Shown here one piece after another: positions 5,863-17,439 of a stretch of 17,439 bases of DNA (positions are counted from its first letter, which is position 1; each line of letters begins with the position of its first letter). Source of the stretch: a bacterium (GTDB lineage: Bacteria > Bacteroidota > Ignavibacteria > UBA10030); the NCBI GenBank assembly GCA_043803945.1, contig JAZDJN010000005.1:1-17439 (forward strand). The letters are read 5' to 3'. The translations under genes and the position numbers were made by a program. The notes below the pieces were generated by a model that made no database searches, was not told the DNA's origin, and was given only the letters and a program-made list of their open reading frames with translations.

Positions 5863-7143
5863 ATGAAAAATATTTTAGCTGCTCTTCTCAGTTTAATCTG
5901 GTTTGCGGCTTATGCCCAGGAAGACCAGTTGTTGGTCCGCCTGAAGGCCTTGCCCGATGTGGCGGAAGTACAACCTGCACGAGTCGATCCGCTTTTCAAA
6001 TCGGGGTACGAGCTTCGCATTCGGCAGCCGCTCGATCATGCCAATCCATCGGGAAAGACTTTTCTTCAATCGGTCTATCTTTCACACGCTGATTTCGATA
6101 AACCCGTTTTGTTTGAGACCGAAGGATACTCTGCACGGAGTGGAAGCATGCCGAAGGAGTTGACCTCAATACTCAAATGCAATCAGATTATCGTGGAGCA
6201 TCGGTACTTTGGAAAATCGAGTCCGGATACATTGCACTGGCAGTATCTCACCACAAAACAGGCAGCCGACGATCATCATCATATCGTTCAGTTATTGAAG
6301 AGCCTCTACAGAGGAAAATGGATAAGCAGCGGCACAAGCAAAGGGGGGCAGACGACTTTATTTTTCCGTTACTATTATCCAAAGGATGTCGATGTGAGTG
6401 TTGCCTACGTGGCGCCGGTCAATGTCTCTCAGGAAGATCCCCGTTTGATCAAGTTCCTGCGGGCTGTTGGGACCGAAGAAGTGCGAGAGAAGATTAAAAA
6501 GTATCAGATTGCGATGTTGAAGCGGGAGCCCGAGATGCTGCCGATGATTGACACGTTGGCGAAGAAGAGAAATCTCACCTTTTCTATTGGAAGGACGCTG
6601 GCGTACGAGTATGGTATTCTTGAATATGCATGCAGTTTCTGGCAGTCTGGCCATTCTGCCGATCAGATTCCGCCGCCCGATGCTCCTGCTGACTCGATGA
6701 TGAATTATTTCGATAAGATCGGCACATTATTTTACTACACCGATCGCGGCATTAAAACGTTCGAGCCATTCCAATATCAGGCATACACCGAAATCGGGTA
6801 TTACGGGTATGACATTTCCGATTTCAAGCAATACCTCACAGCGATGAAAAACCCAACGAACAGTATTCTTGCGCCGAGGAATGTCGAGTTAAAATTCAAT
6901 CCGGTGACGATGTATAATGTTTATTCCTGGCTTCGCGACTATGGGAGCAATATCATCTACATCTATGGAGAGACTGATTTGTGGGGAGCTACTGCTGTAG
7001 AGCTTTCGGGCATGACCAATGCTTTGAAGATTGTAAAGAAAGGTGGTGCACATTCTACCAGAATCAGGACTCTCCCGCGCGAACAGCAGGAACAGGTGTT
7101 CGGAGCTTTGGAGGAGTGGCTGGGAATAAATTTGGAATGGTGA
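5863..7143 (+). CDS. Secreted serine aminopeptidase, S37/S28-like alpha/beta hydrolase (PS-10/tripeptidyl aminopeptidase-like)
   Basis: Likely start at ATG 5863 after AGGAG, followed by a signal peptide. Motifs QPLDH, VEHRYFGKS, QAADDHH, nucleophile elbow G-T-S-K-G-G, IYIYGETDLW and GGAH. Confidence 0.85.
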   Translation: MKNILAALLSLIWFAAYAQEDQLLVRLKALPDVAEVQPARVDPLFKSGYELRIRQPLDHANPSGKTFLQSVYLSHADFDKPVLFETEGYSARSGSMPKELTSILKCNQIIVEHRYFGKSSPDTLHWQYLTTKQAADDHHHIVQLLKSLYRGKWISSGTSKGGQTTLFFRYYYPKDVDVSVAYVAPVNVSQEDPRLIKFLRAVGTEEVREKIKKYQIAMLKREPEMLPMIDTLAKKRNLTFSIGRTLAYEYGILEYACSFWQSGHSADQIPPPDAPADSMMNYFDKIGTLFYYTDRGIKTFEPFQYQAYTEIGYYGYDISDFKQYLTAMKNPTNSILAPRNVELKFNPVTMYNVYSWLRDYGSNIIYIYGETDLWGATAVELSGMTNALKIVKKGGAHSTRIRTLPREQQEQVFGALEEWLGINLEW

Positions 7144-7281
7144 ATTGCCTGCCTGCCGGCCTGTCCTGAAACGAAGTGTAGGCGGAAGCACGAACTGCGC
7201 AGGCGGGTGAATAGTATATTCAATGATGTTGCAGCATTCAGTAACTTAGCCAATCAATAAGTTGTTTTTTTCTCGTACCAG

Positions 7282-7310
7282 TTGCTTTTTGCGCAAGAGG
7301 TTTCTACATT
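7282..7310 (+). promoter_or_regulatory. Candidate sigma70-type promoter for the recombinase region
   Basis: TTGCTT-17 nt-TACATT about 60 nt upstream of ORF 7373. Motif match only. Confidence 0.35.
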
Positions 7311-7372
7311 TGCAATGCCTTCGTGCGCCGGGATTGCGGGGGGGCATATCTTAGAGCTACTCAGGTAATGGG

Positions 7373-7657
7373 ATGCAAATCTCCAGAGAGGTTGTGCGAT
7401 ATAAGCCATTACTCGATCGAATGGTTGCGGAATTAAAGCTCAGGGACTATCCAACCAGAGATCGAGTTCTCACACTGTCAAACAGGACAGGCCGATATGA
7501 GACCATCGAGTCAAATCGGAGCTGTAGACGCGCAATCGTTCAACCTGCCTCTTCTCAACAAACCACACAGTGCATCCTTACCATTGAGCTCCGCAAGTGT
7601 GAATTCATTCTCAAAGATATTCAAGACAACTTTTTCGCGAGAGCGTTCCGTGGCTGA
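7373..7657 (+). CDS. Possible small or degenerate integrase N-terminal (SAM-like) domain ORF
   Basis: KPLLDRMVAELKLRDY resembles the recombinase N-terminus KKLFDVLGQEMRLRNY. Its stop lies just after the GTG at 7650. Could be a pseudogene remnant. Confidence 0.35.
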   Translation: MQISREVVRYKPLLDRMVAELKLRDYPTRDRVLTLSNRTGRYETIESNRSCRRAIVQPASSQQTTQCILTIELRKCEFILKDIQDNFFARAFRG

Positions 7658-8513
7658 GAAACCGAAAAAACTGTTTGATGTTTTGGGGCAGGAGATGAGA
7701 CTGAGAAACTACAGTCCTGAGACCATCAAAGCGTATAAATGCTGCATTCGATCGCTCGCCGCTTTCGTCGCGCCAAAGCATCCTCGTGATTTAACCGGTG
7801 AAGATATACGTAAATTTTTGGTCTATCAAGTTGACTTCAAGAAGCTCTCATCTGGAACGATCACCCAGATGATCAACGCGTTTCGATTTCTCTATGTCGA
7901 GATGTATAAACGGCCACTGGTTTTGACCGACCTCAAGCGCCCCCGTAAGGAATATAAACTTCCGGTAGTTCTTTCAGAAGAAGAGGTGAAATCGTTATTT
8001 GAGTCATTGGGAAACATTAAACATCGTGCGATGATGATGCTTGTCTATTCGGCGGGATTGCGGGTTCGAGAGTTAGTGCAGTTAAGGCCTGAGGATATTG
8101 ACAGTGATCGAAAGATGATTCACATCCACGGGGGCAAGAAAAAGAAGGATCGATATACAATTCTTGCTGATGTTGTGTTACAGGGATTGCGAGAGTATTG
8201 GAAAGCATACAGACCCAAGCAGTGGTTATTTGAGGGACGGAGAGAGGGCAAACCATATTCTCGGCGAAGTGCGGAGAAGGTATTTGAAAATGCAAAGGAG
8301 AAAGCGGGTATTTGCAAGCGAGTTTCGATTCATTCTCTGCGGCACGCTTTTGCAACTCATTTATTGGAACAGGGAACAGATATTCGATTCATACAGGAGC
8401 TTCTTGGGCACAGTAGTGTACGGACGACAGAGATCTACACACATGTGAGTAAGAGAAGAATTGAGGCGATCAAGAGCCCGATTGAACAGGTCATGCAGAA
8501 GAAACGGACATAA
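7650..8513 (+). CDS. Tyrosine recombinase, integron-integrase-like (N-terminal SAM_4-type domain plus catalytic domain), lacking the IntI-specific insertion
   Basis: EMRLRNYSPETIKAY N-domain and LPVVLSEEEV. Catalytic residues R (GLRVRE), K (GGKKKKDR), HSLRH, LLGH and Y (TTEIYTHV) are intact. The frame is open from ATG 7497, but similarity starts near GTG 7650, so the start is uncertain. Confidence 0.9.
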   Translation: MAEKPKKLFDVLGQEMRLRNYSPETIKAYKCCIRSLAAFVAPKHPRDLTGEDIRKFLVYQVDFKKLSSGTITQMINAFRFLYVEMYKRPLVLTDLKRPRKEYKLPVVLSEEEVKSLFESLGNIKHRAMMMLVYSAGLRVRELVQLRPEDIDSDRKMIHIHGGKKKKDRYTILADVVLQGLREYWKAYRPKQWLFEGRREGKPYSRRSAEKVFENAKEKAGICKRVSIHSLRHAFATHLLEQGTDIRFIQELLGHSSVRTTEIYTHVSKRRIEAIKSPIEQVMQKKRT

Positions 8514-8583
8514 TCACACTTTTTATTCGCCCATGAACCACATTGTGTTACAAACACGCAATTCGATATTGCAATAGTTATGC
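8514..8583 (+). other. Predicted attI-like primary recombination site (crossover G8577|TT)
   Basis: GTTATGC core at 8577-8583, 63 bp after the recombinase stop, with no attC body upstream. The sequence after it is the imperfect reverse complement of the sequence before the first attC (8996-9025), as at every other cassette start. It is preceded by the palindrome TATTGCAATA. The left boundary is uncertain. Confidence 0.7.
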
Positions 8584-9018
8584 GCGATGGGCTCGGGGCG
8601 TGCACGTTGGTTGAAGACAGCAGAACAAGAACGTCGTGGTGCTTTGCACCACGGCGAGCGAGTATTCATCAAAAAAAGTGGGAATCGATAGAGTTGCCTG
8701 GAATGAACAAAGTGTCGAATGGTAGTGAGTGACCGTCTCATTTGAGACATTCGTGAATTGAGAATATATTGAACTGATAAGGACAGGTATTGTGGAGAGA
8801 TTTCGTTACTCGTCTGAGTGTCTTGCTTGTAGGTCACTCACGAACAGAAGACACTTTGTTCAACACCAAAAAGTCTCTTTTAGTTCCCATTTTTTTGCTG
8901 CATCCACGGTGAAGCTGTGTCTGACTCGCTCTACATTCTTGTTCTATTATAGGAGGTAAGAAGAGACGACGAGGTTGATCGGAGGTCAACAACGGAACGT
9001 GTACCCCTCGCCCACCTC

Positions 9019-9165
9019 GCATAACAATACGGCAAAATGACGCTCGCTCTTTTATACAACCTCCCTAAAGCATTGTGCTCGCTCCATTGCAGCGCAGAAG
9101 GTGAGCTACAATACTAAGAAAGAAGTCAGTTTGCGCTGCAACGGCATTTTGCCTGTACGTTATGC
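9019..9165 (+). repeat. attC-like site 1
   Basis: GCATAAC...GTTATGC with inner stem GGCAAAATG/CATTTTGCC and conserved CGCTCGC and GTGCTCGCTCCA motifs. Confidence 0.9.
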
Positions 9166-9206
9166 GCCACCAATGGCGATCAATTCACTTAAACTAGGAG
9201 AAATCT

Positions 9207-9488
9207 ATGGCAAAAATTTTCGTTGTCGATCAGGAGCACAAAGCCGACGTAAAGGTCTATGCAACAAGCCAAGAATATTCTGCCGACCTTCTATATCACA
9301 TCGTTGACCAAGAGTACAATGCCAAAGGTGATGTGCTCTGGTTCTACGTTAGTGCAGAATATCAGTCTACCTGTAAGATATTCTGGGTTGACCAAGAACA
9401 CAGAGCCGATCTCAAAGTGTTCAAGGTTGATCAAGAGTACCAAGCAAAATGGAATAAGAATCATCGTTTTCAGAACAGACTAGGATAA
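9207..9488 (+). CDS. Small internally repetitive protein, DUF6150-like (cassette gene)
   Basis: 93 aa with AGGAG RBS and repeated (I/V)(F/Y)xVDQE(H/Y)xAD units. Confidence 0.7.
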   Translation: MAKIFVVDQEHKADVKVYATSQEYSADLLYHIVDQEYNAKGDVLWFYVSAEYQSTCKIFWVDQEHRADLKVFKVDQEYQAKWNKNHRFQNRLG

Positions 9489-9495
9489 ACAAGCC

Positions 9496-10038
9496 ATGCC
9501 ATTCTTTATCTATACCATCGACAAGCAATCCAACGAACTTGAATCTTTCTCCAGTCCCAAAGAAATATCTTTGGCAGGTGCAGCAGGACCGATCGCTAAG
9601 TTCGTTCGCAGCAAGATCAACAGTAGCACAAGACCACCTTTTGAGTGGCACATGACCGAACTTGAGCTTGTGCACTCCCTTGGCTTCACCGACGAAGAAA
9701 CATTTTATCGTGCTGTTATCATCGACCTGAAACCAGGGGACAAGTCTCACGCTCACCTTTATAGGATTCGAGACATCTGGGGATACACCTACTCCGATTG
9801 GACTCCTATTTGTGTTCGCCTTGAGGAACTACGGATCGATTCGAAGGTTTCTCCTAATGTTATCAAGAAAGGATTCACAGTATCCGGGTATCTCAACGAT
9901 CCCGTAATTGAGTTTCTCTATCTTCGTGGTGGATTGGATACGAAAGGTTGGCCGTGGGGGCCAGTTGGCTCTGTAAATGGTGTGTTGCTTTGGCCTGATG
10001 CGTTGAAATATTTTTTGTCTGCCATTGGCGGCGCATAA
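9496..10038 (+). CDS. Hypothetical protein (second gene of the same cassette)
   Basis: 180 aa, starting 7 bp after the previous stop. Its TAA lies inside the GCATAAC box of attC2, a typical cassette arrangement. Confidence 0.75.
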   Translation: MPFFIYTIDKQSNELESFSSPKEISLAGAAGPIAKFVRSKINSSTRPPFEWHMTELELVHSLGFTDEETFYRAVIIDLKPGDKSHAHLYRIRDIWGYTYSDWTPICVRLEELRIDSKVSPNVIKKGFTVSGYLNDPVIEFLYLRGGLDTKGWPWGPVGSVNGVLLWPDALKYFLSAIGGA

Positions 10039-10189
10039 CAAACGGCAAACCGGCGCTCGCACACTGGATAGGCGAAGTTGAAACGATGGTTGGCTAGATG
10101 TAAAGTGCTCGCTCCATTGCTCGCCGCCGCAAGGGATGAGTCTTTCATATGCGGCGGCTCACAACGGCGGTTTGCCTTGAACGTTAGCC
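10033..10189 (+). repeat. attC-like site 2
   Basis: GCATAAC...GTTAGCC with stem GGCAAACCG/CGGTTTGCC. Confidence 0.9.
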
Positions 10190-10308
10190 GCCATGCGGCA
10201 CGATTTGGTCAGCTCCAGATTTGGGGAACGCATTTAGCAAAGTGCTAAACAGTAGCTCGCCGCATGCGAGCCAAGAATTGTCAATCAACCCTGGAGGTGC
10301 TAAGTTTC

Positions 10309-11484
10309 ATGCAATGCTTAGGGAGGACGAAAAGAGGGAGATGCAAACTTTCCGTGAACGAACTCTGGCCGTTCTGTTCTCATCATACATGGCAGCCATT
10401 TGTCACGGCATTTGCTGTCCTGAGTGTCATAGGGGTATTTCTTGCGTTCTATAATGATCTGCGCGAGGCAATTCTTGAGCCTCTCAAATCCTCGAACATG
10501 AACGCAGATGCAATCCAAAACGACGGTTTCTTGGAAATGAAGTCCCTAAGGACATTCCAAGGCCCTTTCTATAGCTGCAACATGTTCATCCCGATATTCC
10601 ACATTATGAACTTGCGAAGCGAGGAACTTGTAGTTTCGCAGATTGACTTCTACTTTGTGAATCCGAAGGTACAAGAGCTAATTCCAGGTTTTCCGGCAGA
10701 TCGCTACGGTAGCTACTTCCACTTAAAGCACTCTGGAGGCTACTGGAGAGCCAACGAAGAACGCGTTGTGATGTCAGACTCTTTTCCCACCGGCCCCGTT
10801 TTCATTCCTCGCGAAGTTTACGTGGAGATCTATCATTCGGGATCAGAGGCCGGATCACACTTTCGCTTTGCTCTAAGCAATGACAAAGACGTCGAGTACT
10901 GGACAAAGCCAAGGCATATTGATTTCGATAAGTTGGATGTTGGCATAGATAGATTGCACGCATATCGGCAGGCAAAAGATTTTGCAGACCAGCTGATGCA
11001 CACCAAGGGACTGGCAATGGGTATTCCGATGAAGACAATCGCGACCAAGCTGCCAAACGCATTGGACAACGTAGCGATCACCGAATGGGGTTTCTTGTTT
11101 GCAGGTTTTCAAGAAGGTCGAGGGATATGGGTAAACATTGACAGTGCCGGGGCTAGAGGAGGTGTGGTCACCTCGATATCACACCCCGATCTTTGCGCGT
11201 TCCTAGTAAGAGCATCGACAAAACCGCTCATTATTGGCACCCGTCAGGCAGTATCAATCGCTGATCAGAACAATCTCATCTTTGCAAATACTTGCCAAGG
11301 AGTCTGGCTTGAGCCGGACGGCTTAGTTGGCGAAGAAAGGCATCCGATCTGGAAACTCCCGTATGTAGGTAGCAACTATATGACACTTTTCATAGATGGG
11401 TTCACAGGCGAAGTTCTCGAAGAGGATTTGGAATATCAACGAAAGGGTAAAGGCCCACCATGGAGATTTCGAACTAAAAAGTGA
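10309..11484 (+). CDS. Hypothetical membrane-anchored protein with an N-terminal Cys/His motif
   Basis: Start placed at ATG 10309 (GGAGGT upstream; the frame is open from 10264). CLGRTKRGRC...FCSHH is a putative Zn-binding motif, followed by one TM helix. The C-terminal W...FIDGFTGEVL is reminiscent of PepSY-like ends. Confidence 0.7.
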   Translation: MQCLGRTKRGRCKLSVNELWPFCSHHTWQPFVTAFAVLSVIGVFLAFYNDLREAILEPLKSSNMNADAIQNDGFLEMKSLRTFQGPFYSCNMFIPIFHIMNLRSEELVVSQIDFYFVNPKVQELIPGFPADRYGSYFHLKHSGGYWRANEERVVMSDSFPTGPVFIPREVYVEIYHSGSEAGSHFRFALSNDKDVEYWTKPRHIDFDKLDVGIDRLHAYRQAKDFADQLMHTKGLAMGIPMKTIATKLPNALDNVAITEWGFLFAGFQEGRGIWVNIDSAGARGGVVTSISHPDLCAFLVRASTKPLIIGTRQAVSIADQNNLIFANTCQGVWLEPDGLVGEERHPIWKLPYVGSNYMTLFIDGFTGEVLEEDLEYQRKGKGPPWRFRTKK

Positions 11485-11645
11485 GCAACCTTGACTGAGG
11501 ACAACCGCGATTGGCTCCCACAATCTGAAGAAAAAGAAGGGTCTACTCTCGTCGGATGATGGTTCCAAGGCTGTTACAGCGATTTGACAATAATAGCGTG
11601 AGAATAGAAAAGCATAGCAGGCACACTTATCTTCAAGGAGACATT

Positions 11646-12218
11646 ATGAAATTGGTATTCGCACCGAGCGTCCTTATCGTGCTACTTTGCACCTACTTTG
11701 CGTGTAGTCAACAGAAAAAGCAAGCCAATCAACCTTTCATGATATCAATTGAAGGGGAAGTATTCCAAGAGAGTGATATCAACTTTTTGTATCCCGCGAA
11801 GAGTCAATTGGCTTACAGGGTCAAGGTAAGTCTAAAGAACACTGGAGAACAGACATTGGAGTTTGACCAAATCGAGACTGCGTTTGTACCACAGGGTGGA
11901 ACTCCATTGAAACAAATGAGTGGCATACGCAGAAAAGGATCACAACAAAATGAGAAGGTAACGCTGGAGCCAGGATCTGTCAAAGAGTTTCCAGCGTTTA
12001 CGAGCGATGGCTATACGAACGATCTCATAAGCGATGCCCGAGGTAGACCTCTAAGATTTTCAGTTTCGCTTCTTTCTTTGGGCCAACGCTTGTTCGGGCC
12101 AACCATGGCTGTCCTTCCTGATATCAAGAAGCTAAGTACTTTGCCTTCGTATCATCAATCCTTGTCCGACAAGAAAGTCAAGGGATTTCCATTGACTTTT
12201 TCGTTGTCAAGTCCGTAG
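11646..12218 (+). CDS. Hypothetical lipoprotein
   Basis: AAGGAG then ATG 11646, followed by a hydrophobic stretch ending YFAC (lipobox-like) and a beta-rich domain (VKVSLKNTGEQTL). Confidence 0.7.
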   Translation: MKLVFAPSVLIVLLCTYFACSQQKKQANQPFMISIEGEVFQESDINFLYPAKSQLAYRVKVSLKNTGEQTLEFDQIETAFVPQGGTPLKQMSGIRRKGSQQNEKVTLEPGSVKEFPAFTSDGYTNDLISDARGRPLRFSVSLLSLGQRLFGPTMAVLPDIKKLSTLPSYHQSLSDKKVKGFPLTFSLSSP

Positions 12219-12284
12219 CCTCCGAGGAAGAATGTGAAACATCATCAAAGGAATTATTGTTTTCAGCTTTTGTGCCGCACGAAC

Positions 12285-12428
12285 GGCTAACAAAACTAAG
12301 CACGCCGCTCGCACATTGGCAAGGCTCTCGCACGAGCCAACGCACGCGCAATAAGTTGTGCTCGCTCCACCCCGCCGTCAATTATAGAACATCGATGGCG
12401 GGGCGGCGTGCTTACTCGAACGTTAGGC
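12285..12428 (+). repeat. attC-like site 3 (divergent)
   Basis: GGCTAAC...GTTAGGC with stem TAAGCACGCCGC/GCGGCGTGCTTA. GTGCTCGCTCCA is retained. Confidence 0.88.
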
Positions 12429-12456
12429 GGCATTTGCCATCATAATGGAATGACAT

Positions 12457-12966
12457 ATGGATCGAAATGTTTCAATTGTGCCTTACTATCAATATCAGAG
12501 AGAGTATCAACGAATCAGGATTATTACTCCATTCTCAACACTATTTATTACTATCATTGTTGTCATTTTTTTTCTCATCGGAAATTGGATTTTCAAAGGA
12601 AAAGAAAGTCCTGATGATGCGTTAAAGATGAAGGTAAAAAAAATCGAGGACATTGGGGGAACGCTCGAAGATCTTTCCGAATACTTGCAACAACAGAAGA
12701 CTATTATCATCGCCCAGGATGAGCAGATCAAGAAGCTTAATAAGGCCAATCAGGATCTCGAGCCCATTGTCAAAGCAAAACAAGAGATCGTAGATGCGAT
12801 TATCTTCGAAGCCCAGAAGAAAGCTGAGGACAATTCCTGGCGAGACAGGTTAATTGGGATAGCAATTGGAATTATCAGTTCCTTGTTTGCTACTCTTATC
12901 TGGCATTTCTTCCTTGCAGACAAGTGGATTACTTCAAGAATGAAACCGAGAGCAAACTCAATATAG
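12457..12966 (+). CDS. Hypothetical membrane protein (two TM helices flanking a coiled coil)
   Basis: 169 aa that fills the cassette, with two hydrophobic segments and a heptad-like K/E/Q-rich middle. Confidence 0.75.
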   Translation: MDRNVSIVPYYQYQREYQRIRIITPFSTLFITIIVVIFFLIGNWIFKGKESPDDALKMKVKKIEDIGGTLEDLSEYLQQQKTIIIAQDEQIKKLNKANQDLEPIVKAKQEIVDAIIFEAQKKAEDNSWRDRLIGIAIGIISSLFATLIWHFFLADKWITSRMKPRANSI

Positions 12967-13010
12967 TACCTAATTAACGTAATCCTAAAGGAGTTTTCCT
13001 GGCAAACGCC

Positions 13011-13166
13011 GCCTAACAATCGGCAAACCGACGCTCGCTCTCTGTAGAAGCAAGAGTAAACCTAAGATTGGCTCGCTATAAAGAGCTCGCTCCATTGCTC
13101 GCCGCCGCAAGGAATGGATTTTTCGTATGCGGCGGTTCGCAACGGCGGTTTGCCTGAACGTTAGGC
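13011..13166 (+). repeat. attC-like site 4
   Basis: GCCTAAC...GTTAGGC with stem GGCAAACCG/CGGTTTGCC. Confidence 0.9.
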
Positions 13167-13222
13167 GCCACCGCAACTCACAATCGACATTTTTCTAACC
13201 ATATGGCTGAACACAAAACACT

Positions 13223-14029
13223 ATGGACAATCAACTTGCTCTAGGAAAGATTCGAAAATCCATTGCCGAAGCTCAAAATGCCTTTGAAGAAGCGGTCTTT
13301 TTAGGCCACCCTTCTGATCCGGCTTGGTCCATTGAAACCGCTTTCTTAATGACTCTCTCTCTTGTTGAATCTCTTGGTCTTCACAAGCTACATCAGATGC
13401 TCTTGTCAGATTTCAGAAAGATCAAGAATTCCAAAGAAGGCTTCTCCAAGGACGAGCAGGATGAATTCACCGAAGAACCATACCCAGTCCACCTTTCGAA
13501 GTTGCGTCAATACCTACATTCAATCGAATCATTTTTTCCAGATGACAAGGATACCATCGTTTCGAAAGACGTTCTGAACATATTACGAGACATCCATTAT
13601 ACGATTGCCGACAAAACTCTTTTTGGGTGTGCTCCGAGTTCAGAAAAGGATGTTCACCTGAGGATAGAGGGCATTTTGAAGCCATTGTTCCCCGATTTGA
13701 AACACAAGCCCTCGCTAACAAAACAGATCAAGAATTTCGAGCCTGATACTGGCATCCCCTCTATTAGGACACTCATAGAGTACAAGTATCTCGATTCCAA
13801 GAAGTCGATTCCCGTCCTTGCCGACCAAATCCTCGCAGACACTCGAGGCTATGTGTCTAAGGAATGGAATCGTTTCATCTATGTCGTATATGAGACCAAC
13901 CGATTTCGATCAGAGAAGGATTGGAATCAGTTACTTGCTCAGTCCGGTTTATCAGACAACTCAGTGGTTGTAGTCCTTAGCGGTGAACCATCAAGGAAGA
14001 CGGCACGACGAAGATCTCAAATGAGTTGA
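13223..14029 (+). CDS. Putative PD-(D/E)XK nuclease with a DpnII/MboI-like C-terminal domain
   Basis: 268 aa with SEKDVH...ILKPLFPD...FEPDTGIPSIRTLIEYKY...QILADTRGY, giving an E...PD...ExK arrangement. The N-terminal domain is helical. Confidence 0.65.
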   Translation: MDNQLALGKIRKSIAEAQNAFEEAVFLGHPSDPAWSIETAFLMTLSLVESLGLHKLHQMLLSDFRKIKNSKEGFSKDEQDEFTEEPYPVHLSKLRQYLHSIESFFPDDKDTIVSKDVLNILRDIHYTIADKTLFGCAPSSEKDVHLRIEGILKPLFPDLKHKPSLTKQIKNFEPDTGIPSIRTLIEYKYLDSKKSIPVLADQILADTRGYVSKEWNRFIYVVYETNRFRSEKDWNQLLAQSGLSDNSVVVVLSGEPSRKTARRRSQMS

Positions 14030-14061
14030 CTTTTCTTCATGATTTCTAGGAATGCGGCGGC

Positions 14062-14219
14062 GCCTAACAATCGTGCTTGCGACGCTCGCTCGTTTGGTTA
14101 TGTCGAATAGGAATCTAAACAACGGTATATCAATTGTGCTCGCTCCATGCCGTCCGGCCACGAGAAATGAATCATTCTTACGTGGCCGGTCGGCACGGCG
14201 GTTTGCCTGTACGTTATGC
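14062..14219 (+). repeat. attC-like site 5 (chimeric, inner arms not complementary)
   Basis: GCCTAAC...GTTATGC. The left arm GTGCTTGCG faces the right arm CGGTTTGCC. Confidence 0.85.
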
Positions 14220-14244
14220 GCAATTGGCTTGTGGAGCGTTTCCT

Positions 14245-14814
14245 ATGAAAACCCTTCGTCTTGTTCGCTCGACACACTATCTCGTGGTTGCAATGAGCTT
14301 ACTGCTCGGCCAATCCAGCCTGGAAGCACAACAATCATCAAGTGCTGCTGCGGAGGACTGCCCCATTTGGATGAACATCGGTATGGGTGGCGGGTCAACT
14401 GGTGTCTCGCTCGGAACAAGCCTTTCCTATGAACTTGAGAGTAGCCTCCTCACTCTTCGCTATATTTACAATAAAGAAATAGAATTGTTGGGAGATTCCA
14501 CCCCCTGGGAATCAGTCTCTGACATCGGCGTCCTTTATGGCATCATGACCAAAGCATCATACGGGATGGCTTCCTTATCTGCAGGTATTAGTACTGTCAG
14601 AGGAGTTCGCCGAGGCGGGTTCATAGCAAAGACTGGATTGTTTTCAACCACGTACGCGGAGATACGCTTTTCTACCGCGGGAATCCCATTGGAGGGACGA
14701 CTATATTGGCGGACTTCGTCTAGCTTCGGAATCGGCATATATGTCGTCGGAAATCTGAATGATCAGAAGTCCTTCATCGCTGCGCAACTCTCTGTTGAAG
14801 GAACACTGTGGTAG
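14245..14814 (+). CDS. Hypothetical secreted protein, probable outer-membrane beta-barrel
   Basis: GGAG then ATG 14245, signal peptide ending LEA-Q, Gly/aromatic amphipathic strands and a terminal W. Confidence 0.65.
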   Translation: MKTLRLVRSTHYLVVAMSLLLGQSSLEAQQSSSAAAEDCPIWMNIGMGGGSTGVSLGTSLSYELESSLLTLRYIYNKEIELLGDSTPWESVSDIGVLYGIMTKASYGMASLSAGISTVRGVRRGGFIAKTGLFSTTYAEIRFSTAGIPLEGRLYWRTSSSFGIGIYVVGNLNDQKSFIAAQLSVEGTLW

Positions 14815-14828
14815 CACAAGCCAACTGC

Positions 14829-14984
14829 GCCTAACAAACGGCAACACGGCGCTCGCACGCTGGATAGGCATGGGAGAGGCTAGGATTGGCTAAATGTTAA
14901 GTGCTCGCTCCATTGCTCGCCGCCACAGCTTACCGGTCATTCGATTGTGGCGGCTCGCAACGGCGTGTTGCCTAAACGTTAGGC
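14829..14984 (+). repeat. attC-like site 6
   Basis: GCCTAAC...GTTAGGC with covaried stem GGCAACACG/CGTGTTGCC. Confidence 0.9.
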
Positions 14985-15017
14985 GCAACGCTTCGTCACT
15001 GGACATTTGAGGGCGTC

Positions 15018-15875
15018 ATGAATTCTTCCACCATGTTCGCTAGGATCGTCTTCACCTCCGCCGTTCTGACCGTGCCACTGTTTTCCCAGTACGCTCAAAT
15101 GGAATTCCCTCTACAAGTAGGTGATCGCTGGCAATTCTCCGAAGTCCAGGGACCGCCGGGCGTCGAAGAGTCGCGGGTCATTAGTGAGGCAATCATGGCG
15201 AATGGGCTCAAGTACGCGGTGATCGCCGGCTCGATGGCAGCAGGTAATTATCGCAAAGAAGGATCCAAGGTTTACCAGTGGATATCCTCGGCTGATAGGC
15301 TCATCTGCGATTTCTCGAAGAAGCCAGGAGACACATTGGCTGTTTATCCAAACGGTCCCGATTCCACAATGGTTGTTGTTATGGATCAGGGCCTCTGGAT
15401 GTGTTTCGACCAACTGCGCTTTCAAATGAGGTTCAAACACGTCAGTTATCGATCTCCGGGGCACATAAGAGCCATTTACCACGTCGCGGACAGCGTGGGT
15501 TTCGTCAGGCTGGACCAGGAGACCGTACATTTTTGGCTCGTCGGCGCTGTCATCAACAGCAGACAGTTCGGTCTCGTAACTTCCATTGCCAAGGCTCAAT
15601 CGGATATGCCCACCGGTGCTCAACTCTTGCAGAATTATCCGAATCCGTTCAATGCTACCACAATGATCTCTTTTCGCATCAACGTGGCATCTGAGGTTTC
15701 GATCAGAATCCATGATCTTATGGGTCGCAAGATTGCCTTGGTGCTGTCTAGACATCTTCTGGCCGGTTCATACAGCCTCAACTGGGATGCTTCACTGTGT
15801 CCAAGCGGTGTCTACTTCTGCAACCTTGTCGCTGGCTCGACGGTGAAGACGACAACGATGATTCTGCTCAAATAA
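15018..15875 (+). CDS. Secreted protein with a T9SS type A C-terminal sorting domain
   Basis: Signal peptide. The C-terminus reads LLQNYPNPFNATTMISF...IHDLMGRKI...WDAS..PSGVYFCNL...TMILLK. Confidence 0.88.
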   Translation: MNSSTMFARIVFTSAVLTVPLFSQYAQMEFPLQVGDRWQFSEVQGPPGVEESRVISEAIMANGLKYAVIAGSMAAGNYRKEGSKVYQWISSADRLICDFSKKPGDTLAVYPNGPDSTMVVVMDQGLWMCFDQLRFQMRFKHVSYRSPGHIRAIYHVADSVGFVRLDQETVHFWLVGAVINSRQFGLVTSIAKAQSDMPTGAQLLQNYPNPFNATTMISFRINVASEVSIRIHDLMGRKIALVLSRHLLAGSYSLNWDASLCPSGVYFCNLVAGSTVKTTTMILLK

Positions 15876-15889
15876 GCACGAAGCGCTGC

Positions 15890-16045
15890 GCCTAACAAAC
15901 GGCAAACCGGCGCTCGCACGCTGTATAGGCGGGGGAAGTACAAGAGTGGCTAAATGTAAAGTGCTCGCTCCATTGCTCGCCGCCACAGCCATTGAGTCTG
16001 TTCGATAGTGGCGGCTCGCAACGGCGGTTTGCCTAAACGTTAGCC
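15890..16045 (+). repeat. attC-like site 7
   Basis: GCCTAAC...GTTAGCC with stem GGCAAACCG/CGGTTTGCC. Confidence 0.9.
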
Positions 16046-16081
16046 GCAACCGCTCGTAATAATTTTCTGAAAGGAATAACT

Positions 16082-16468
16082 ATGATATGTCCAGCTTGTA
16101 ATAATACAGCCACGACTGTATTCCGTGATCTCTATTCTCTTCAAGGAGTTACCATTTTCCAGAAGTACAAAGGGTATCTTAATTGCCATTCGTGTGGTGC
16201 GACTCTTCGTGTGGCTGGTTATGATAAAAGGATTTGGTACTACTACATCCCATTACTATTTATCATAGCGGTGTTCGTTTCATTCTATAATTCTTGGTCC
16301 CCAATAGTCTTATCTTGGCTCGAAATCATCGGGCCAGTTGCAACAGTTATTATATCTTTCTGTTTAATCATCCTTATTCCTTTCATAATTGATTATAGCT
16401 TCTTGAAGTATGCTCGTGTCGAGATAACTGGTAATCCCGCTAGCTCGACGATAGGAGTTCATACCTGA
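16082..16468 (+). CDS. Zinc-ribbon (CxxC...CxxC) membrane protein with two TM helices
   Basis: CPAC...CHSC followed by two hydrophobic segments, with an AAGGA RBS. Confidence 0.75.
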   Translation: MICPACNNTATTVFRDLYSLQGVTIFQKYKGYLNCHSCGATLRVAGYDKRIWYYYIPLLFIIAVFVSFYNSWSPIVLSWLEIIGPVATVIISFCLIILIPFIIDYSFLKYARVEITGNPASSTIGVHT

Positions 16469-16497
16469 TTTTTCAATTGTATCTCACGAGCGGCTGC

Positions 16498-16649
16498 GGC
16501 TAACAATCGGCAAACCGACGCTCGCTTGCTGTAAAGTCTTAAACGAACCAAACAGGGCTTGATAAATTGTGCTCGCTCCATTGCTCGCCGCCACGGAATG
16601 AATTAGTCATAGTGGCGGCTCGCAACGGCGGTTTGCCTAAACGTTAGGC
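16498..16649 (+). repeat. attC-like site 8
   Basis: GGCTAAC...GTTAGGC with stem GGCAAACCG/CGGTTTGCC. Confidence 0.9.
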
Positions 16650-16742
16650 GGCATGTGGCTTTTGTAAGTTGATAAGATGTACCATGCTATTCAATGAGAA
16701 GTAGTTATCCATCATATTCTTACATTAGGAGGAGATAACCTT

Positions 16743-17096
16743 ATGCGCCGCAAAGATTATATGTTCATGCTGATTCTTGTTATGCTTTCAAGTTTCCTAG
16801 GTGGAGCCTTCATGAGTTGGTTGCTTTTAGATAAGGTAGCCTTTGCTCAGGTCGATGATAAACCGGCAACAATAATCAGGGCTAAGGCTTTCCAATTAGT
16901 GGATGATAGAGGGAGGATCCGAGCTAATCTATCTTGTTATAATCCTTCAAAGGTTGTAAATAAACGTATAAATGATTCGGTAATGCATTCTCAGATAGAA
17001 GTGCGTCAGGATGAAGTGAGGTTTGAATTGATGGATGCGAGTGGGACGATAGTCTGGTCAGCTCCTCAATCATTTAAACCAACATTTATCAAATAA
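16743..17096 (+). CDS. Hypothetical exported or membrane-anchored protein
   Basis: AGGAGGAG RBS, N-terminal hydrophobic segment ending AFA-Q, and an IRAKAFQLVDDRGRIRA motif. Confidence 0.75.
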   Translation: MRRKDYMFMLILVMLSSFLGGAFMSWLLLDKVAFAQVDDKPATIIRAKAFQLVDDRGRIRANLSCYNPSKVVNKRINDSVMHSQIEVRQDEVRFELMDASGTIVWSAPQSFKPTFIK

Positions 17097-17151
17097 ATGT
17101 TATTGGCTATAATAAATTTCAATCTAGAGACATAACTATATGCCACACGCC

Positions 17152-17307
17152 GCCTAACAATCGTGCTTGCGACGCTCGCTCATCTGGTTATGTCGAATAG
17201 GAATCTACATGGCGGTATGTCAATTGAGCTCGCTCCATTTCGTGCCGCCACGGAATTGAGCTTTTATAGTGGCGTCACTCAACGGCGCAAGCACTCAGAC
17301 GTTATGT
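17152..17307 (+). repeat. attC-like site 9
   Basis: GCCTAAC...GTTATGT with stem GTGCTTGCG/CGCAAGCAC. Confidence 0.9.
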
Positions 17308-17439
17308 GTCATGTCCGCCAGCACTTTTTTTGAAAGTAAAAGAATCACTTGGGGCCTATCTAGTGGTGGTAAATTCTTTAAGCAGTGCCTCGCACAACGG
17401 AAGACCAAATCAATAACGGCTTATTCATCAAGGTGCTGG

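Follow-up and report, generated by a model that had tools for sequence, protein, structure and literature searches.

The window analyzed in this study is the entire 17,439-bp contig JAZDJN010000005.1 (assembly GCA_043803945.1) of a bacterium of the Ignavibacteria lineage UBA10030. It most probably carries the head of an integron-like platform for gene cassettes in the chromosome, and the integrase of this platform comes from a clade of tyrosine recombinases without the I2 segment specific to the integron integrases (IntI). The I2 helix, or additional domain of IntI, is treated as what defines integrons and as the invention that made them possible. The source genome, referred to as G000, is assembled in 118 contigs of 5.5 Mb in total, of which the window is contig C5, and was compared with 40 relatives of the same order (41 genomes with G000). 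The left part of the contig contained ordinary genes, which were assigned by Pfam to a response regulator, a UvrA-like ATPase and an S37 peptidase. The right part consisted of unrelated open reading frames (ORFs), mostly without a family and all on the + strand, that were separated by nine related sites of 144–158 nt. The array continued past the contig end at 17439, and its far end was unseen.

The main features of the locus are given below. Family A is the site family of the window array, and family B is the site family headed by canonical IntI. The bit scores are those of R1, a covariance model built from the nine window sites.

7650–8513, + strand: tyrosine recombinase gene without the I2 insertion (called protein P0002, 287 aa; open frame from the ATG at 7497)
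8555–8583, + strand: attI candidate, with the palindrome GCAAT-TCGAT-ATTGC (8558–8572) and then the R-box GTTATGC (8577–8583)
9019–9165, + strand: attC-like site 1 (family A), 107.9 bits
10033–10189, + strand: attC-like site 2 (family A), 166.2 bits
12285–12428, + strand: attC-like site 3 (family A), 107.7 bits; L arms of different sequence that still pair
13011–13166, + strand: attC-like site 4 (family A), 177.4 bits
14062–14219, + strand: attC-like site 5 (family A), 152.6 bits; hybrid with unpaired L arms
14829–14984, + strand: attC-like site 6 (family A), 174.5 bits
15890–16045, + strand: attC-like site 7 (family A), 161.1 bits
16498–16649, + strand: attC-like site 8 (family A), 167.3 bits
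17152–17307, + strand: attC-like site 9 (family A), 130.6 bits; last site before the contig end

The Short Recombinase

The protein encoded at 7650–8513, hereafter the short recombinase, possessed a Phage_integrase domain (PF00589, E 2.3e-42) and an N-terminal Phage_int_SAM_4 domain (PF13495), and thus matched two of the three profiles that had been proposed for checking it in an earlier, sequence-only description of the window (hereafter the original prediction). The translation of the ORF at 7497–8513 (+) includes ...GGKKKKDRYTILADVVLQGLREYWKAYRPKQWLFEG... With the catalytic R-K-H-R-H/W-Y motifs and the Phage_integrase fold, the protein belongs to the tyrosine recombinase superfamily. Moreover, the Arg of GLRVxE, the Lys of KDR, HxLRH, LGH and the Tyr of IYTHV were invariant across 40 homologs, which indicates that the short recombinase is under constraint.

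The original prediction had quoted an insertion-less sequence between the GKxxKDR loop and the WLF motif, and this string, LREYWKAYRPKQWLF, was found exactly in the ORF at 7497–8513. That the IntI insertion is missing was borne out by profile, structure and alignment. Against TIGR02249, the NCBIfam model of integron integrases, the short recombinase scored 214.9 bits, under the cut-off of 265, and the match was split between profile positions 4–179 and 242–314, leaving positions 180–241 unmatched. Its best solved relative by sequence was VchIntIA of Vibrio cholerae (2a3v, E 4.9e-42), for which the match was also split (query 14–182 with chain 11–179 and query 209–279 with chain 248–318), and ~42 chain residues had no counterpart. 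The second solved match, XerA (5hxy), was unsplit. The AlphaFold (AF2) model of the short recombinase (pLDDT 81.5) had no helix at the place of I2, and Foldseek ranked the solved structures as the sequence search did (2a3v, then 5hxy), with a probability of 1.00 to both. When aligned with IntI1, one cyanobacterial IntI and two canonical IntIs from its order, the short recombinase showed two gaps of ~28–31 and 10 columns, which fell at the 'ALERKYP...W' segment (I2) and at ~10 residues just after 'WVF'. IntI was reportedly defined by Messier and Roy in 2001 by an additional domain near patch III, a definition that IntegronFinder shares through its intI_Cterm profile. By this definition, the short recombinase, which lacks that domain (the I2 helix), is not an IntI. 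Finally, the short recombinase was barely above the cut-off of NF040815, the NCBIfam XerA/'integron integrase' model (224.3 vs. 220), and far under the cut-offs of the XerC and XerD models.

Family-A Sites

On the cassette strand, family-A sites consisted of R'' (..CTAAC), a 4-nt spacer, a 12-nt L'', a GCTCGC-rich stretch, a G+C-rich and variable central hairpin, L', a 5–7-nt spacer and R' (GTTAGGC). They therefore possess the features by which integron attC sites are recognized, which include an imperfect palindrome, R''/R' boxes with AAC/GTT, L''/L' boxes, an unpaired central spacer and a variable center. RNAalifold missed the L stem of the nine window sites because of the hybrid site 5. The structure was thus supplied by hand and then tested. 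In this 32-pair structure, 89.1% of the positions were paired, compared with 29.5–44.9% when the partners were slid, and 13 compensatory pairs were counted, a number reached by none of 500 shuffles. R1 retrieved 69 sites (68 distinct) in the window and 17 loci of other genomes. Among the 68 distinct sites, pairing was 88.7% vs. 28.2–41.0% with slid partners, and compensatory cells numbered 452, compared with 160 on average after shuffling; none of 500 shuffles reached that number. In G000 at least 42 family-A sites were found on many contigs. The statement in the original prediction that nine related sites separate unrelated genes thus agreed with nine + strand sites of 144–158 nt that share a covarying structure.

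The left L arm of site 5 (14062–14219) matched the one in site 9, and the right one matched those of sites 4, 7, and 8, so that no pairing is possible. This hybrid could be a product of recombination within the sites and not at the R box. The hexamer GCTCGC occurred in direct orientation up to four times per family-A site (e.g., 14829–14984), and two of the copies were invariant in all nine window sites; it could be a putative binding motif for the recombinase or an accessory protein. A generic scan for pairing arms with AAC...GTT ends also identified one element of another sequence family between attI and site 1:

8702–8864, no strand assigned: extra imperfect palindrome (163 nt) with AAC...GTT ends, arms 8704–8734 and 8832–8862 (inverted repeat I2, 31 nt, 84% complementary)

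Two generic detectors were of limited use for these sites. An ungapped attC detector missed three of the nine window sites. A detector based on duplex energy gave ~1.6 hits per 10 kb over 80 loci of distant relatives, many of them from G+C-rich taxa, and so it neither shows nor excludes arrays there.

The attI Candidate and the Crossover Footprint

As stated in the original prediction, the recombinase gene was intact and was followed by an attI candidate after 63 bp: the stop codon ended at 8513, and GTTATGC (8577–8583) began 63 nt past it. In 12 of 14 homolog loci, the stop codon was directly followed, at one aligned place, by a palindrome and, ~10 nt later, by GTTA(T/G)(G/C)C. The sequence of the palindrome differed between loci, while its palindromic nature was kept. 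The motif was present again in four genomes of another order (genus g54).

The crossover of integrons lies between the G and the TT of R'. Therefore, the first bases of a cassette were once part of its own attC and pair with the R'' flank. Among 34 cassettes of six genomes, there were 23 in which the 21 nt that follow the preceding GTT agreed in at least 14 positions with the reverse complement of the R'' flank of the same cassette; in 228 non-cognate pairs, agreement reached no more than 13/21. Low values could reflect sites that were missed or have decayed. At the window attI, 15 of the 21 nt after the GTT at 8577 agreed with the reverse complement of the flank of attC1. The footprint of the first, attI-proximal cassette was above all non-cognate values in 5 of 10 genomes (G000, G040, G010, G070, and G142), with three among the first six genomes and two among four further ones. 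On this comparative evidence, the cassette junctions carry the footprint of a G|TT crossover in the R' box, at attC as well as at attI, and the crossover in the window attI is placed between G8577 and T8578. Similar to integrons, the platform would thus have an attI next to the integrase gene with its crossover in GTT.

Conservation of the Gene–attI–Array Layout

Full-length homologs of the short recombinase (48–55% identity) were identified at 17 loci in 15 of the 40 relatives. Co-oriented family-A sites were downstream of the homolog at 10 of the 17 loci and, weakly, at one more. The remaining six loci had no site, and only 11–759 nt of contig followed the gene; contig breaks just 3' of the gene are what repeats do to assemblies. 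The array of G014 was headed by a recombinase remnant. In a class-wide sample of 150 genomes, the short gene was found in 20, and co-oriented arrays were downstream of it at six of the eight loci from another order. The original prediction had proposed to ask whether homologs are followed by the same repeat family. They were, and on the same strand, at the loci counted above in both orders. The comparison shows a gene–attI–array layout that is conserved over at least two orders.

The homologs of G142, G117, and G167, which belong to another order, were 63–68% identical to the window protein, compared with at most 58% for those of its own order. This greater similarity across orders than within the order points to horizontal transfer of the platform. 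On contigs C1, C3, C4, and C9 of G004, four near-identical copies of a 253-aa paralog (38–39% identity to the window protein) were found, which looks like a multi-copy mobile element and not an array head.

Canonical IntI and Family-B Sites

Canonical IntI, with TIGR02249 scores over the cut-off, was found in 13 of the 41 genomes of the order, and the one tested was 54% identical to IntI1. Six relatives contained the short gene and no other TIGR02249 match. Their family-A counts were 10, 0, 16, 1, 7, and 2, which are lower bounds, as are all family-A counts per genome (69 candidates were scored in each), and their family-B pattern counts were 0, 0, 0, 1, 0, and 0. In all five tested genomes of genus g54, including a 1-contig and a 2-contig assembly, there was no TIGR02249 match over the cut-off and none across profile positions 181–230.

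In G000 the 5' part of a canonical intI (profile positions 1–95) was found at the ends of contigs C45 (~13.6–14.08 kb) and C70 (~58.5–59.05 kb). Given that the two contigs share this 5' part behind different housekeeping flanks, canonical intI occupies at least two loci in G000, each of them cut off by the assembly at an identical point. A 3' part was located on the minus strand of contig C41 (locus L016) at ~1575–2315, where it was split after 'TFRHS' by a 94-aa GIY-YIG ORF and resumed with 'FATHLLENGYDIR'. Because an Rfam search of C41 found no group I intron around the GIY-YIG insertion, this interrupted intI is probably a pseudogene or the host of an unclassified mobile insertion. Downstream of it on the same strand was a 255-aa ORF, followed by the family-B site TAACCAGnnnCTCAAGCTGAC ... 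GCAGCTTAG ... CCGTTAGG. In addition to this contig, family B adjoined canonical intI in G016 (divergent; 62 pattern hits genome-wide) and G018 (co-oriented), and it was near canonical intI by coordinates in G008, G023, and G004.

Families A and B share their R boxes (TAAC/GTTA) and the spacer asymmetry. Their L arms were different. Of 27 family-B sites, 26 carried exactly two unpaired bases, each standing singly, on the L'' arm, and their L' arm was free of them. This two-bulge pattern was found in 0 of 65 family-A sites, of which 53 were symmetric. The L arms of family A were equal in length in 64 of 69 sites, and most of them had a 1×1 mismatch three positions from the inner end. The extrahelical bases on the L'' arm that are characteristic of integron sites are thus absent from family A. 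In the account of Escudero (2020, PMC7790495), the I2 helix docks the extrahelical bases of attC and thereby blocks the second strand exchange. Given this role of I2, the absence of the helix is matched to the absence of the bulges: judged from the sites that each adjoins, the enzyme without I2 pairs with bulge-less sites and the enzyme with I2 pairs with bulged sites, even in one genome.

As G000 and other members of the order encode canonical IntI, the window array might instead be a cluster of attC sites lacking integrases (CALIN) that is built or serviced in trans by canonical IntI, and the short recombinase might be a Xer-like neighbor with another job. CALINs are common (Cury, 2016, PMC4889954), the R boxes and the spacer asymmetry are common to both families, and G018 combines a canonical IntI with 22 family-A sites and no short gene that could be found. 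We nevertheless consider this explanation unlikely. Arrays and the short gene, with no canonical IntI detected, were found in six relatives and in 5 of 5 genomes of g54, of which two are nearly closed. The canonical intI seen in G000 is split by the GIY-YIG ORF and is followed by a family-B site. Moreover, family A is without the bulged bases that are docked by IntI, and it is directly after the short gene that the conserved attI with its crossover footprint is located.

Phylogeny

The short recombinase belongs to a large radiation of insertion-less SAM_4 recombinases, which comprised 3,704 clusters at E up to 1e-30 from many phyla. Trees were built with FastTree (133 rows) and with IQ-TREE (77 rows; quick search, mixture model); insertion columns were removed by a fill filter, and the trees were rooted by outgroup only. 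Canonical IntI formed one clade with a support of 100 in both trees (19 rows, including IntI1). This clade excluded the short recombinases. The array-heading short proteins of the order formed a separate clade, with a support of 99 (FastTree) and 75 (SH-aLRT, IQ-TREE). An outgroup clade of Xer-like genes, which holds two genes of G000, was outside both of them. The order of deep clades was left open by FastTree. When the short clade and IntI were constrained together, the likelihood was slightly better (+7.3; p-AU 0.629). The short clade and IntI are, by these trees, separate clades and possibly sisters. The possibility that the short gene descends from within canonical IntI and lost the insertion secondarily was rejected on both trees, as the IntI clade excludes it.

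Less probable than action of canonical IntI in trans is that the short recombinase is a dead IntI relic without the insertion, and that the arrays are frozen fossils. Decayed copies do occur: there was a TAG in G010, a TAA in G117, stops in G167, G107, and G136, the remnant in G014 and a frameshift on contig C65 of G000. In addition, a single clade of the short recombinases and IntI is compatible with the AU test. However, the clade is old and diverse (44–80% identity to the window protein) and has kept all catalytic motifs, and it is not nested in IntI, whose clade (support 100) excludes it. The sites covary, so their structure has been kept while their sequence changed, and the attI footprint has been kept while cassette contents vary between genomes. 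Finally, the least credible explanation gives the short recombinase a housekeeping role in the host, as a Xer for chromosome dimers or for another such task, and takes its adjacency to the array as incidental; the marginal NF040815 score and the XerA structures as second-best solved match would fit it, but the gene is patchy (15 of 40 relatives, 21 of 151 genomes of the class), the other Xer-like genes of G000 group with the outgroup Xer-like clade, and adjacency, orientation and attI motif recur across orders.

Repeats were also observed downstream of distant homologs (~41–44% identity) at 10250–13570 of locus L133 (Winogradskyella ursingii) and at L112 and L114. They were up to ~160 nt long and recurred every 0.7–2 kb. 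The hosts of these three loci are Flavobacteriaceae and a Clostridia genome, and the repeats of L133 and L114 contained CAACAA motifs. The repeats suggest that arrays are headed by other clades of the recombinase family as well. Many contigs with distant homologs such as these also end shortly 3' of the gene.

Proposed Mechanism

According to the mechanism that we propose, the short recombinase itself would catalyze attI × attC insertion and attC × attC excision. It would bind the folded site as a Xer-type two-arm core that consists of the R stem, the unpaired center and the L stem, and recognition would proceed without the lock between I2 and the extrahelical bases. Cleavage would be at the R box, followed by strand exchange with attI for insertion or with another site for excision. 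The spacer asymmetry (4 nt vs. 5–7 nt) and the conserved 1×1 mismatch are candidates for determining strand choice. When Xer acts on folded phage DNA, as in the CTX-phi type of integration by XerCD, a single exchange is followed by replication. Resolution without I2 might follow the same route, or both strands might be exchanged in full on sites that are extruded or duplex. The short recombinase and canonical IntI would each use a private site dialect.

The original prediction was that of a distinct cassette-capture system driven by a short integrase clade. Comparative evidence supports it, as the domain is absent, synteny is conserved, some genomes with the platform have no detectable canonical IntI, and the canonical IntI of G000 heads family B. 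We are somewhat inclined to go further and to view the platform as one in which cassettes are captured at folded sites without I2. A separate and possibly sister lineage of IntI would then run its own integrons, the bulges of its attC sites would never have been present or would have been lost, and two orthogonal systems would coexist in such bacteria.

Several observations weigh against the main reading, a platform driven by the short recombinase. The support for recombination by the short recombinase is wholly comparative. The site model was built from the window and the alignment (A4) was fitted to the model, both of which favor the structure. As the far end of the window array is off the contig, a canonical intI there is formally possible. 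An intact short gene had no array in the searched sequence at the second copy of G175 (~19 kb) and in G082 (1.7 kb), and the frameshifted paralog of G000 at 24474–25297 of C65 (43–48% identity) is on a contig for which the genome motif scan gave no family-A site. Family-A sites without an intact short gene were found in G018 (22), G032 (14), G017 (8), G015 (5), and G031 (4). In G018, where the head of the array is beyond the contig, action of its canonical IntI in trans is possible. Finally, R1 found no family-A site at 80 loci of distant relatives from other phyla, with one weak match beside a homolog that groups with canonical IntI. Because of this result, the link between gene and array is shown for the short clade only.

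Cassette Contents and Occurrence of the Array

Downstream of attI there were at least nine co-oriented cassettes, each of which ended in a folded attC-like site. The first cassette, from attI to site 1, had no convincing ORF. The contents of the others were as follows.

9207–10038, + strand: two-ORF cassette (9207–9488, DUF6150; 9496–10038, no family)
10264–12218, + strand: two-ORF cassette (406 aa and 220 aa, no family)
12457–12966, + strand: cassette ORF, 169 aa, no family
13223–14029, + strand: cassette ORF, 268 aa, with a DpnII/MboI-like restriction-endonuclease domain (PF18742, E 2.3e-8; PADLOC Aga_Helical-REase, E 1.8e-12)
14220–14814, + strand: cassette ORF, no family (listed frame 14134–14814)
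15018–15875, + strand: cassette ORF, 285 aa, with a type IX secretion system (T9SS) C-terminal sorting domain (PF18962, TIGR04183)
16082–16468, + strand: cassette ORF, 128 aa, no family
16743–17096, + strand: cassette ORF, 117 aa, no family

Given that the start of the cassette at 10264–12218 did not match the flank of site 3 (7/21), there may be a decayed site between its two ORFs. The listed frame of the ORF at 14134–14814 starts inside site 5, and its real start is therefore probably past 14219. The PADLOC family of the ORF at 13223–14029 makes it a defense candidate, and there was no methylase in the same cassette. PADLOC and NCBIfam searches of the ten cassette ORFs revealed nothing beyond this restriction-endonuclease-like domain and the T9SS sorting domain.

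A scan of 7100–9300 for promoters and terminators, which may not cover the promoter type of the host, gave nothing above chance (four promoter-like signals vs. 3.2 expected and one terminator-like signal vs. 1.8). The cassettes are probably expressed by read-through from the integrase side. Rfam had no match in 7000–17439 at E up to 0.1. The public sequencing run matching the stretch was one peat metagenome, which contained 5% of the sampled words, and none among the runs listed was an RNA sequencing run containing it. Contigs of the peat metagenome piled up on the attC sites, and their flanks diverged at the site borders. One of these contigs joined 14988 to 15889 and thus skipped the cassette at 15018–15875. 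It was not counted, as the shorter side of the joint was only 21 letters long and the joint lay in repeats.

Comparison With Known Systems and Implications

Similar to canonical integrons, such as those of class 1 IntI1 and V. cholerae VchIntIA, the platform has a tyrosine recombinase with an SAM_4 N-terminal domain, for which VchIntIA is the best solved match, an attI with a GTT crossover beside the gene, and cassette ends at G|TT. The cassettes contain promoterless and mostly orphan ORFs in one orientation. The sites are folded imperfect palindromes with R'' (..TAAC) and R' (GTTA..), an unpaired spacer, L boxes and a variable center. Different from canonical integrons, the enzyme is without ~40 IntI-specific residues, including I2, scores under the TIGR02249 cut-off and falls outside the IntI clade, and the family-A sites are long (144–158 nt) and without the two extrahelical bases.

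The original prediction had also taken the orientation of the gene, which points into the array, as a feature that sets the system apart. The co-orientation was found as described, but it is not diagnostic. Integrons with an inverted integrase, in which intI is co-oriented with the cassettes, are known from certain Treponema (Cury, 2016, PMC4889954). In archaeal integrons attI is just downstream of intI, and archaeal IntIs were defined by the additional domain (Ghaly, 2022, PMC9668308). The platform resembles both in having gene, attI and cassettes on one strand, as does the canonical intI of G000. It differs from both in that their integrases have the additional domain of IntI.

Compared with the action of Xer on CTX-phi DNA and with the pdif modules of Acinetobacter, a similarity is that the I2-less short recombinase would act on a two-arm core with an unpaired center. 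The Xer-dependent pdif resistance modules are said to be gene modules bounded by recombinase sites. Different from the platform, these systems use housekeeping XerC/D and short dif-like sites, and they are not known to have a dedicated attI or a one-way tandem array headed by a recombinase gene.

For an 'integron-like' subgroup of simple tyrosine recombinases, the insertion was described as 'not fully conserved' and yet was called essential for integron function (Smyshlyaev, 2021, PMC8138268). This subgroup fits the large insertion-less radiation observed here, and no cassette arrays are reported for members without the insertion in the passages that deal with it (PMC8138268). In another survey, 50 recombinases without the domain were found near attC sites, and it was concluded that they 'are not IntI' (Cury, 2016, PMC4889954). 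Complete integrons have been reported in Chlorobi and Ignavibacteriae (Néron, 2022), and a 'lack of intermediates' has been noted (Escudero, 2020, PMC7790495). A full-text literature search, outside of which were supplements and subscription journals, found no paper describing arrays headed by an insertion-less integrase. The present results add a direct comparison of the two systems, including the architectures of their sites. The occurrence of both systems in the same genomes is a natural control, with bulged sites where I2 is present and bulge-less sites where it is not.

If the proposed reading is true, a whole class of platforms escapes any integron survey in which the IntI domain is required, and with it a hidden reservoir of cassettes in environmental bacteria, which current integron finders would label as integrase-less or would miss. 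For instance, if the attC model of IntegronFinder detects family A, the locus would be labeled a CALIN, because its integrase fails the IntI test. The short recombinase and its sites would constitute a second recombinase–site pair that may be orthogonal to IntI/attC. How a strand is chosen and how single strands are exchanged without I2, and whether I2 was gained after cassette capture had arisen, are questions that the platform raises. On the proposed reading, the lock between I2 and the extrahelical bases would be a lineage-specific refinement and not the founding invention of integrons.

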